DNA of 64,000 nt from Escherichia coli (GTDB taxonomy: Bacteria > Pseudomonadota > Gammaproteobacteria > Enterobacterales > Enterobacteriaceae), in the NCBI RefSeq assembly GCF_046105845.1, contig NZ_CP151004.1. The stretch is one strand, 5' to 3'. Below, piece after piece: positions 19,698-27,499 of this stretch (position 1 is the first letter of the stretch; each line of letters starts with the position of its first letter). The notes below the pieces were generated by a model that saw only the letters and a program-made list of their open reading frames with translations, was not told the origin of the DNA and did not search any database. The translations under genes and the position numbers were made by a program.

Positions 19698-22409
<2,712 letters not shown>

Positions 22410-22904
22410 TCACTTCACTGTGGAAAATGAGGAAATATTATTTTTTTTGCGCTTCGTAATTAATGGTTATAAGGTCGGCCAGAAACCTTTCTAATGCAAG
22501 CGATGACGTTTTTTTATGTGTCTGAATTTGCACTCTGTCACAATTCCAAATCTTTATTAATGACTCACCTAAAACGACGCTGATCCAGCGTGAATACTGG
22601 TTTCCCTTATGTTCATCAGATTCATTTAAGCAAGGGTTTCTTCTTCATTCCTGATGAAAGTGCTATCTAAAAAGATGATCTTAATAAATCTATTAAGAAT
22701 GAGATGGAGCACACTGGATATTTTACTTGTGAAACTGTTTCACTCCTTTACTTAATTTATAGAGTTACCTTCCGCTTTTTGAAAATACGCAACGGCCATT
22801 TTTTGCACTTAGATACAGATTTTCTGCGCTGTATGGCATTGATTTGCTGCTAATCCTGTGGTTTGCACTAGCTTTAAGTGGTCGAGATCACATTTCCTTG
22901 CTCA

Positions 22905-22950
22905 TCCCCGCAACTCCTCCCTGCCTAATCCCCCGCAGGATGAGGAAGGT
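22905..22950 (+). promoter_or_regulatory. malPQ promoter region with MalT-box-like hexamers
   Basis: GGATGA at 22938-22943 and an inverted GGAGGA-like hexamer about 22912-22922, 65-100 bp upstream of the malP ATG; consistent with the MalT box consensus GGA(T/G)GA. Confidence 0.45.
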
Positions 22951-22990
22951 CAACATCGAGCCTGGCAAACTAGCGATAACGTTGTGTTGA

Positions 22991-25408
<2,418 letters not shown>

Positions 25409-25417
25409 GGAAGCTCG

Positions 25418-27499
25418 ATGGAAAGCAAACGTCTGGATAATGCCGCGCTGGCGGCGGGGATTAGCCCCAATTACATCAATGCCCACGGTAAACCGCAGTC
25501 GATTAGCGCCGAAACCAAACGGCGTTTGCTTGACGCGATGCATCAACGTACCGCCACGAAAGTGGCGGTAACGCCAGTCCCGAATGTCATGGTTTATACC
25601 AGCGGCAAAAAAATGCCGATGGTGGTGGAGGGCAGCGGCGAATATAGCTGGCTGCTGACCACCGAAGAAGGAACGCAGTACAAAGGCCATGTAACGGGGG
25701 GCAAAGCGTTCAATCTACCGACGAAGCTGCCGGAAGGTTATCACACGCTGACACTCACCCAGGACGACCAGCGCGCGCATTGCCGGGTGATTGTGGCACC
25801 GAAACGCTGTTACGAACCGCAGGCGTTGCTGAATAAACAAAAGCTGTGGGGTGCCTGCGTTCAGCTTTATACGCTGCGATCGGAAAAAAACTGGGGTATT
25901 GGGGATTTTGGCGATCTCAAAGCGATGCTTGAGGATGTGGCAAAACGTGGCGGGTCGTTCATCGGTCTGAACCCGATTCATGCGCTCTATCCGGCAAATC
26001 CGGAAAGTGCCAGCCCGTATAGCCCGTCTTCTCGCCGTTGGCTGAATGTGATTTATATCGACGTTAACGCCGTCGAAGATTTCCATCTTAGCGAAGAGGC
26101 TCAGGCCTGGTGGAAGTTGCCGACCACGCAACAGACGCTGCAACAGGCGCGGGATGCCGACTGGGTTGATTACTCCACGGTTACCGCCCTAAAAATGACA
26201 GCATTACGAATGGCGTGGAAAGGTTTCGCGCAACGTGATGATGAACAGATGACCGCGTTTCGCCAGTTTGTTGCCGAGCAAGGCGACAGCCTGTTCTGGC
26301 AGGCGGCGTTTGACGCACTACATGCCCAGCAAGTGAAAGAGGACGAAATGCGCTGGGGCTGGCCTGCATGGCCAGAGATGTATCAGAACGTGGATTCACC
26401 AGAAGTGCGCCAGTTCTGCGAAGAACATCGTGATGACGTCGATTTTTATCTCTGGTTGCAGTGGCTGGCTTACAGCCAGTTTGCCGACTGCTGGGAGATA
26501 AGCCAGGGCTATGAAATGCCGATTGGCTTGTATCGTGATCTGGCGGTTGGCGTAGCGGAAGGTGGGGCGGAAACCTGGTGCGACCGTGAACTGTATTGCC
26601 TGAAAGCGTCGGTAGGCGCACCGCCGGATATCCTCGGCCCGTTGGGGCAGAACTGGGGATTGCCGCCAATGGACCCGCATATCATCACCGCGCGTGCCTA
26701 TGAACCGTTTATCGAGCTGTTGCGTGCCAATATGCAAAACTGCGGCGCATTACGAATTGACCATGTGATGTCGATGCTGCGTTTGTGGTGGATACCGTAT
26801 GGCGAGACGGCGGATCAGGGCGCGTATGTACACTATCCGGTGGATGATCTGCTCTCGATTCTGGCACTCGAAAGTAAACGTCATCGCTGCATGGTGATTG
26901 GTGAAGATCTCGGTACCGTACCGGTAGAGATTGTCGGTAAGCTGCGCAGCAGCGGTGTGTACTCCTACAAAGTGCTCTATTTCGAAAACGACCACGAGAA
27001 GACATTCCGCTCACCGAAAGCGTACCCAGAGCAGTCGATGGCGGTTGCGGCGACACACGACCTGCCTACGCTACGCGGCTACTGGGAGAGCGGGGATCTA
27101 ACGCTGGGCAAAACGCTGGGGTTGTATCCGGATGAAGTGGTACTGCGCGGTCTGTATCAGGATCGCGAACTGGCGAAGCAAGGACTGCTGGATGCTCTGC
27201 ATAAATATGGTTGCCTGCCAAAACGTGCCGGGCATAAGGCATCGTTGATGTCGATGACGCCGACGCTGAATCGTGGTTTGCAACGTTATATCGCTGACAG
27301 TAACAGTGCCCTGTTAGGGCTACAGCCAGAAGACTGGCTGGATATGGCGGAACCGGTAAATATTCCCGGCACCAGTTACCAGTATAAAAACTGGCGGCGC
27401 AAGCTCTCTGCAACGCTTGAGGCGATGTTTGCCGATGATGGCGTGAACAAGTTGCTGAAGGATTTGGACAGACGGCGCAGAGCGGCAGCGAAGAAGTAG
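25418..27499 (+). CDS. malQ: 4-alpha-glucanotransferase (amylomaltase) MalQ
   Basis: 693-aa ORF MESKRLDNAALAAGISPNYINAHGKPQSISAETKRRLLDAM; immediately downstream of malP. Confidence 0.95.
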   Translation: MESKRLDNAALAAGISPNYINAHGKPQSISAETKRRLLDAMHQRTATKVAVTPVPNVMVYTSGKKMPMVVEGSGEYSWLLTTEEGTQYKGHVTGGKAFNLPTKLPEGYHTLTLTQDDQRAHCRVIVAPKRCYEPQALLNKQKLWGACVQLYTLRSEKNWGIGDFGDLKAMLEDVAKRGGSFIGLNPIHALYPANPESASPYSPSSRRWLNVIYIDVNAVEDFHLSEEAQAWWKLPTTQQTLQQARDADWVDYSTVTALKMTALRMAWKGFAQRDDEQMTAFRQFVAEQGDSLFWQAAFDALHAQQVKEDEMRWGWPAWPEMYQNVDSPEVRQFCEEHRDDVDFYLWLQWLAYSQFADCWEISQGYEMPIGLYRDLAVGVAEGGAETWCDRELYCLKASVGAPPDILGPLGQNWGLPPMDPHIITARAYEPFIELLRANMQNCGALRIDHVMSMLRLWWIPYGETADQGAYVHYPVDDLLSILALESKRHRCMVIGEDLGTVPVEIVGKLRSSGVYSYKVLYFENDHEKTFRSPKAYPEQSMAVAATHDLPTLRGYWESGDLTLGKTLGLYPDEVVLRGLYQDRELAKQGLLDALHKYGCLPKRAGHKASLMSMTPTLNRGLQRYIADSNSALLGLQPEDWLDMAEPVNIPGTSYQYKNWRRKLSATLEAMFADDGVNKLLKDLDRRRRAAAKK

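Follow-up and report, generated by a model that had tools for sequence, protein, structure and literature searches.

Does a perfect inverted repeat between two divergent promoters mark a regulatory site? The question is raised by a 15-bp palindrome, GTGAAAC-T-GTTTCAC, in the divergent malT-malP spacer of Escherichia coli (22404-23014, 611 bp, in a 64,000-nucleotide stretch of contig NZ_CP151004.1, assembly GCF_046105845.1; this whole stretch is referred to as the window, and all positions are counted from its first base). The original prediction had placed the repeat about 330 bp upstream of the malT start codon and had read it either as a CRP site with atypical geometry or as a site for another dimeric regulator. 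We find that the palindrome is not the CRP site activating malT. Rather, it is probably, if only just, an incidental and recently perfected repeat in AT-rich spacer DNA that has no specific regulatory role. This absence of function is what we infer from a set of direct observations, namely the position of the palindrome, its allele frequencies, the lack of any excess over expectation, a spacing that is wrong for CRP, and the lack of RNA, open reading frame (ORF) or promoter signals.

The segment 22727-22745 reads TTGTGAAACTGTTTCACTC, and the palindrome proper occupies 22729-22743 as a 7+1+7 repeat with its central T at 22736; it cannot be extended, T22728 and T22744 being unpaired. As malT is encoded on the minus strand, 'upstream' of this gene means higher coordinates, and once the strand is considered the predicted location is right: 326 bp separate the start of the palindrome, and 333 bp its centre, from the malT ATG. 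On the other side, the malP ATG (23015) lies 272 bp downstream of the palindrome. The K-12 coordinates are NC_000913.3 3552745-3552759, with the malT ATG at 3553085. An 801-bp query around the palindrome matched 5423 of 5426 complete E. coli genomes at 97-100% identity, and a repeated or mobile element was rejected, as the malT-malP spacer is a single occurrence per genome. A 13-bp form, TGAAAC-T-GTTTCA (22730-22742), is common to all three E. coli strains that were aligned (the window strain, K-12 and strain 16843). It is also the sole match to the pattern TGAAAYNRTTTCA in the window when one mismatch is allowed, with 0.86 matches expected by chance.

The palindrome is no more than chance would give. 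The spacer is AT-rich (30-39% GC), and of 2000 dinucleotide-preserving shuffles of its 611 bp, 6.4% contained at least one 7+1+7 palindrome; the share was 18% for gaps of 0-3 and 37% for gaps of 0-10. Over the whole window, the 7+1+7 arrangement was counted eight times, versus 3.9 expected under uniform base composition, and with 7-nt arms but any gap of 0-10 the count was 101. Moreover, the same spacer contains a longer perfect palindrome, which had not been flagged before: an 8+4+8 repeat, TCTTAATA-aatc-TATTAAGA, at 22679-22698.

The perfect palindrome is also a minority allele within E. coli. Counting the exact 35-mer centred on it in ~5420 E. coli records, we found the window allele in 1845 records (34%) and the K-12 allele, with A at 22729 (ATGAAAC), in 3509 (65%). 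Specifically, K-12 MG1655 reads ATGAAACTGTTTCAC, in which the outer G-C pair is missing. Other Escherichia species carry A or C at 22729, so that the G is probably derived; their left arm is CCGAAAC or CTGAAAC and their right arm ATTTCGC. Among the three aligned E. coli strains there was one single-nucleotide polymorphism in the 15 bp of the palindrome, close to the density in the surrounding spacer. In the account that we favour, the perfect symmetry arose recently, when one substitution, A/C to G, occurred at 22729 in a fraction of E. coli strains. The perfected form then sits on an older A/T-rich quasi-palindrome of 11-13 bp, whose core overlaps a modestly conserved stretch, TATT...GAAA-N3-TTTC.

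CRP binds PmalT at -70.5, a class I site (PMC10882989). We located this mapped site at 22524-22545 on the minus strand (AATTGTGACAGAGTGCAAATTC; 6-bp spacer, centre 22534.5), which places the malT transcription start at 22464 on the same strand. The -10 box has been described as a 2/6 consensus match that retains A-11 and T-7, with an alternative TATAAC 5 bp downstream (PMC10882989), and the hexamer GACCTT at 22476 to 22471 (minus strand), followed by TATAAC, fits this description. Counted from the start so inferred, the palindrome centre is at about -272, ~200 bp upstream of the CRP-site centre; the activating positions of CRP (-41.5, -61.5, -71.5, -81.5 and -91.5) all lie < 100 bp from a start site (PMC10882989). 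When the spacer was scanned for TGTGA/TCACA half-sites at spacers of N6, N7 and N8, the best N6 matches were the mapped malT site (22527-22542) and a malP-side site (22877-22892), tied at 8/10, and the palindrome was absent from the best N6 or N8 matches. At N7 only, it matches 9/10 as TGTGA-AACTGTT-TCACT (22728-22744), and just two N7 matches this good exist in the 64 kb; the CRP-like half-site pair with the wrong spacing is thus real in this allele. The K-12 allele has TATGA as its left half-site, with one G of TGTGA lost, and scores 8/10. Because the mapped malT site lies elsewhere, and because geometry, position, polymorphism and conservation all speak against it, the proposed CRP site of atypical geometry finds no support, and the palindrome was rejected as the malT CRP site.

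To assess conservation, species-representative genomes were scanned for the MalT N-terminus, giving 80 loci, in 78 of which malP lies divergently upstream; the spacers of these 78 loci are mostly 570-640 bp long. Conservation was near complete at the malT (about 22441-22545) and malP (about 22875-22985) promoter blocks and poor between them, and the mapped malT CRP site itself was nearly invariant in the 78 species. When 68 species (about 53 effective sequences) were combined in a weighted profile, the CRP site scored 1.64 bit per position and the palindrome 0.59, with a median of 0.35 for the central 11-bp windows. Inside the palindrome, only G22731 and the TTTC at 22738-22741 stand out (0.7-1.3 bit), and the outer positions are at background. 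The sole part that is conserved across genera is the core GAAA-N3-TTTC (22732-22741, together with G22731; about 0.6-1.3 bit per position), which aligns with AGAAAC-T-ATTTC in Citrobacter and Salmonella, GTAAT-C-ATTTC in Enterobacter and relatives, and CCGAAAC-G-GTTTCAC in E. albertii. Conservation therefore attaches to a short, asymmetric run of A/T-rich sequence with which the E. coli palindrome overlaps, and not to the palindrome itself.

A palindrome elsewhere in the spacer has a different pattern. In 14 species of Enterobacter, Lelliottia and Pseudenterobacter (loci L007, L010-L013, L015, L019, L020, L022-L024 and L027-L029 of our collection, e.g. L011 1266-1279), CTGAAAC-NN-GTTTCAG is found 99-101 bp upstream of the malT CRP centre; the arms do not vary, the centre does (TG, AG, GG or GC), and the flanks diverge. 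On this evidence it looks like a constrained site of a dimeric factor. At the equivalent position E. coli has a decayed right arm only, GGGTTTCT (about 22633-22640), and the flagged E. coli palindrome does not share the combination of invariant arms and variable centre.

If the palindrome is incidental, the spacer around it would keep malTp and malPQp apart, divergent promoters that are each under their own control, and CRP would control malT from the class I site at -70.5, ~200 bp nearer the gene. Deletion analyses by Débarbouillé et al. in 1982 and Raibaud et al. in 1983 are said to be the source of the belief that far-upstream sequences are dispensable for either promoter. Our literature searches found no description of the central malT-malP spacer, and the RefSeq record of MG1655 has no annotated feature between malP (ends 3552473) and malT (starts 3553085). 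A 'new' IS5 insertion in this spacer was reported for a W3110 stock, with no phenotype given (PMC2072959); by coordinate estimate it lies ~164 bp upstream of malT, and it is uninformative on the dispensability of the upstream region. The reference W3110 has an intact 611-bp spacer (NC_007779.1 4087332-4087942; L083 22333-22943).

Several observations weigh against a palindrome of no consequence. The core rises above background where the surrounding spacer is near 0.1-0.4 bit, and among 267 windows of the spacer the one that holds the core takes rank 40. Just beside the palindrome, toward malT, a TATT island (22719-22722) reaches 1.2-1.5 bit, above the palindrome itself; it is aligned in 58 of the 68 species and lies within (G)AAATATTATTTC in many other genera. 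The distance from this island to the malT CRP centre is 196 ± 5.8 bp, with 54 of the 58 species at 193-200, versus 103 to 208 bp (standard deviation 25) to the malP-side conserved block, across the malP side of the spacer (22745-22875). The intervening malT-side sequence (22546-22722) is barely alignable, i.e. its length is kept and its sequence is not. Likewise, an 11-bp indel (GTTGTACGGTA) at 22600/22601 is polymorphic within E. coli: K-12 and the window strain lack the 11 bp, which strain 16843 (L002 804-814) and other Escherichia species have. Salmonella has an independent ~10-bp (10-11 bp) deletion in the same region; both changes amount to about one helical turn. This suggests a constraint, one of length, that is tied to the malT side. 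Neither an ORF nor an RNA nor an array of motifs turned up that would explain it, and the regularity of the malT-side length is the main reason why we hold the reading without function no more firmly than as the slightly favoured one.

The explanation that survives best beside it is that the core and the TATT island form a distal upstream operator for an undescribed dimeric factor that modulates malT, which we regard as unlikely but deserving serious consideration. Bound there, the factor could reach the CRP or Mlc region, ~200 bp away, through a DNA loop. The cross-genus footprint on GAAA-N3-TTTC and TATT speaks for this explanation, and so does a distance that hardly changes toward the malT CRP site but varies toward malP; the 11-bp indel roughly keeps the helical phase. 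The odd-centred dyad is compatible as well: TGAAAC-T-GTTTCA satisfies the LysR-type pattern T-N11-A and the full form the IclR-type arrangement of 7-1-7, to which may be added the fit to the MetR consensus and the IclR register (8/14); this resemblance is permissive and by itself not diagnostic. Finally, the Enterobacter clade shows that a clearly constrained TGAAAC-armed palindrome can exist elsewhere in this spacer.

However, the conservation of the core is weak (0.59 bit per position over the palindrome) and asymmetric, with most of the left arm exchanged for GTAAT in Enterobacter, and E. coli itself is polymorphic at the outer positions. The phasing is not strict either. Relative to the centre of the malT CRP site, E. 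coli and Salmonella have the core (at most one mismatch) at +198/199, and Citrobacter, Enterobacter, Lelliottia, Pluralibacter and non-coli Escherichia have it at +208 to +214; the TATT island, at 193-200, is spread over more than half a helical turn, and +225 was observed in one Escherichia species. The window holds no second copy of the motif, and a position of -272 is far from the usual LysR-type or IclR-type sites. In terms of what defines such sites, the palindrome is not near -65, its arms are partly conserved, its outer pair is polymorphic, and we found no cognate regulator for it. In the literature consulted, malT transcription is regulated by CRP and Mlc, of which Mlc represses malT (PMC3161199), besides the RegulonDB entry of malT as an Lrp target, a link that rests on expression data only (PMC2374795). 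Of the originally proposed site for another dimeric regulator, then, the candidates Cra, MalI and Lrp failed our tests (see below), and the modest cross-genus footprint of the core leaves room for such a factor.

In a broader version, the core and the TATT island would constitute an undescribed distal malT element, kept at a distance of ~195-210 bp, or 19-20 helical turns, to the CRP site in at least 10 enterobacterial genera and bound by a dimeric regulator or an architectural protein that would contact the promoter through looping; the E. coli and Enterobacter-clade palindromes would be lineage versions for a TGAAAC-recognising factor. We consider this quite unlikely. If it were true, malT control would gain a distal input, and the length conservation of the malT-side spacer would gain a mechanism.

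More doubtful still is a nucleoid-protein architecture upstream of malT, i.e. an Lrp array, H-NS/StpA or Fis, in which the palindrome would be one degenerate site, and the length and AT-richness of the DNA would count more than its sequence. A malT-side spacer that is conserved in length and not in sequence, with 30-37% GC, would suit such an arrangement, as would conserved islands that recur roughly every 30 bp. The Lrp consensus obtained by systematic evolution of ligands by exponential enrichment (SELEX) is YAGHAWATTWTDCTR, and CTGGATATTTTACTT at 22714-22728 matches it at 12/15. Moreover, malT is a RegulonDB Lrp target (PMC2374795). Yet Lrp matches are not enriched in the spacer, with one at 12/15 or better versus 1.5 in shuffles and two at 11/15 or better versus 8.4, and we retain an Lrp array as an improbable rival at most. 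Nor does the list of 314 Lrp genomic-SELEX sites, in main text and supplement, contain a malT or malP entry, although the neighbouring glpD/glgP is listed. The H-NS/StpA effect reported for MalT is translational (PMC3161199).

The window allele, with its 9/10 half-sites TGTGA...TCACT and only one other N7 match of this quality in 64 kb, is what speaks for a second CRP site of unusual 7-bp geometry, aiding the -70.5 site or acting on malP. One additional base, however, turns the half-sites by ~36 degrees, and the CRP sites reportedly described by Barber et al. in 1993 had spacers of 6 bp or, rarely, 8 bp. TATGA is found in 65% of E. coli genomes, and TGTGA is absent in other genera, which read TAGAAAC or AAGTAAT. 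No class of CRP activation fits positions of about -272 (malT) and roughly -240 (malP; our estimate, with the position of the MalT boxes assumed), and the spacer already has two conserved N6 sites, all of which makes a second CRP site here very improbable. It is hardly credible that the palindrome is transcribed as an RNA hairpin or terminator or lies within a small gene: two ORFs cross it (22654-22755, 33 amino acids; 22704-22853, 49 amino acids), but these are broken by stops in E. albertii and no positionally conserved ORF was found in 64 species, a 1-nt loop is sterically impossible, the RNA fold around the palindrome is no better than that of shuffles (z = -0.93), the palindrome has no T-run and no match to a promoter or terminator consensus or to an Rfam family, and K-12 has no annotation there.

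The remaining features of the locus are as follows. The malT coding sequence (19698-22403, minus strand, ATG at 22403) matches the NCBIfam MalT equivalog with 1646 bits, and malP (23015-25408, ATG at 23015) and malQ (25418-27499) are on the plus strand. A nearly invariant block, ATTTTTTTTGCGCTTCGTAATTAAT, covers 22441-22464 on the minus strand, about +1 to +24 of malT, and coincides with what we take to be the position of the Mlc operator of Decker et al. (1998). On the malP side, the CRP-like site AGTGG-TCGAGA-TCACA (22877-22892, 22-mer 22874-22895, plus strand; 8/10 at N6) precedes the MalT boxes of malPQp. It is nearly invariant (0.9-1.0) in the 78 species, a conservation equal to that of the MalT boxes, and its centre is presumably at about -93.5, assuming that the proximal MalT box is at -37.5. 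The boxes themselves (GCTCATCCCC, ACTCCTCCC and GGATGAGG; 22896-22949, plus strand) form inverted and direct repeats and are likewise nearly invariant; the MalT box consensus is GGGGA(T/G)GAGG.

Some further observations concern the CRP-related sequences of the spacer. At 22535, within the spacer of the malT CRP site, a C in the window strain stands against a G in K-12 (GCACTCTGTCACA versus GCACTGTGTCACA), and both variants occur in other genera. The octamer TTTGCACT, the weak half of this site, is present three times in the malT-malP spacer (22527-22534, 22802-22809 and 22862-22869), and the copy at 22802 extends as TTTGCACTTAGATACAGA, a 12/16 match to the CRP site TTTGCACTCTGTCACAAT.

Others concern the spacer centre. 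Its strongest conserved island is 22588-22602 (GCGTGAATACTGG, consensus GCGTGGATACTGG), with a nearly invariant CTGG; it lies ~55-67 bp upstream of the CRP centre, roughly -125 to -138 from malT +1, and we recognised no motif in it. Small conserved islands recur in the spacer roughly every 30 bp. A terminator-like hairpin, ACGCTG-gat-CAGCGT followed by CGTTTTAGG, is found at 22577-22591 on the minus strand, directed toward malT; E. albertii and Escherichia sp. E1V33 preserve its stem with an altered loop, and outside the genus the stem is not kept. There is a further inverted repeat with arms TTCATCAG and CTGATGAA, 31 nt apart (22612-22658), and an 11-nt inverted pair with 82% complementarity (22645-22702). 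Together with the 8+4+8 palindrome, these repeats appear to be Escherichia-specific among the species examined.

As it stands, a palindrome that is probably incidental is an ordinary finding of little consequence. The picture of malT control stays as it was, with CRP acting at -70.5, Mlc at +1, and an effect of Lrp that has yet to be mapped. What is gained is that a regulatory region studied as closely as few others in E. coli is freed of a plausible-looking extra CRP site, and that perfect symmetry by itself is seen to be a poor guide in AT-rich spacers.

How, then, does the palindrome compare with known operators? We also compared it by eye with consensuses for OmpR, CpxR, PhoP, TyrR, Fis, FadR-type regulators, KdgR and NagC/Mlc; all were off-spacing or matched half a site at most, and we give this comparison no weight. 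For the odd-centred families the consensuses are TGGAAAT-N-ATTTCCA (IclR), TGAAACA-N-TGTTTCA (KdgR), TGAA-N5-TTCA (MetR) and T-N11-A (LysR-type). Measured against these consensuses, the IclR box shares the odd-centred 7-1-7 layout and has GAAA/TTTC in register with the palindrome, with a match of only 8/14; the KdgR box has GAAAC and GTTTC 3 bp apart versus 1 bp in the palindrome; and TGAA-N5-TTCA of MetR is literally fitted.

Far-upstream Lrp arrays such as those of gltBDF and ilvIH resemble the malT upstream region in that a distal AT-rich region is of constrained length and malT is a listed Lrp target; they differ from the malT spacer, which has neither motif enrichment nor a genomic-SELEX peak. 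MalI, a repressor of the maltose system, has operators that we read directly from K-12 malI-malX (GATAAAACGTTTTACC and GATAAAACGTTTTATC). These have AAAC/GTTT in common with the palindrome, but MalI boxes are even-centred with a central CG and have arms of ATAAAAC, in contrast to the odd-centred GTGAAAC, and a MalI operator was rejected. The half-sites TGAAAC/GTTTCA are essentially those of Cra. The Cra motif, ctgaAtCGaTtcag or gcTGAAtCGaTTCAgc, is even-centred, and its central CG carries the highest information (PMC5888115). The palindrome, by contrast, is odd-centred (C-T-G) with no central CG and has its half-sites 1 bp out of register, so that a Cra operator was rejected too. The Enterobacter-clade palindrome also has arms similar to those of Cra, but with two extra central bases and no central CG. 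The palindrome can also be compared with the class I CRP site of malT itself, which lies in the same spacer and is likewise built of inverted TGTGA/TCACA-like half-sites: that site has a 6-bp spacer and is nearly invariant, whereas the palindrome has a 7-bp spacer and has lost the G of its half-site in most E. coli.

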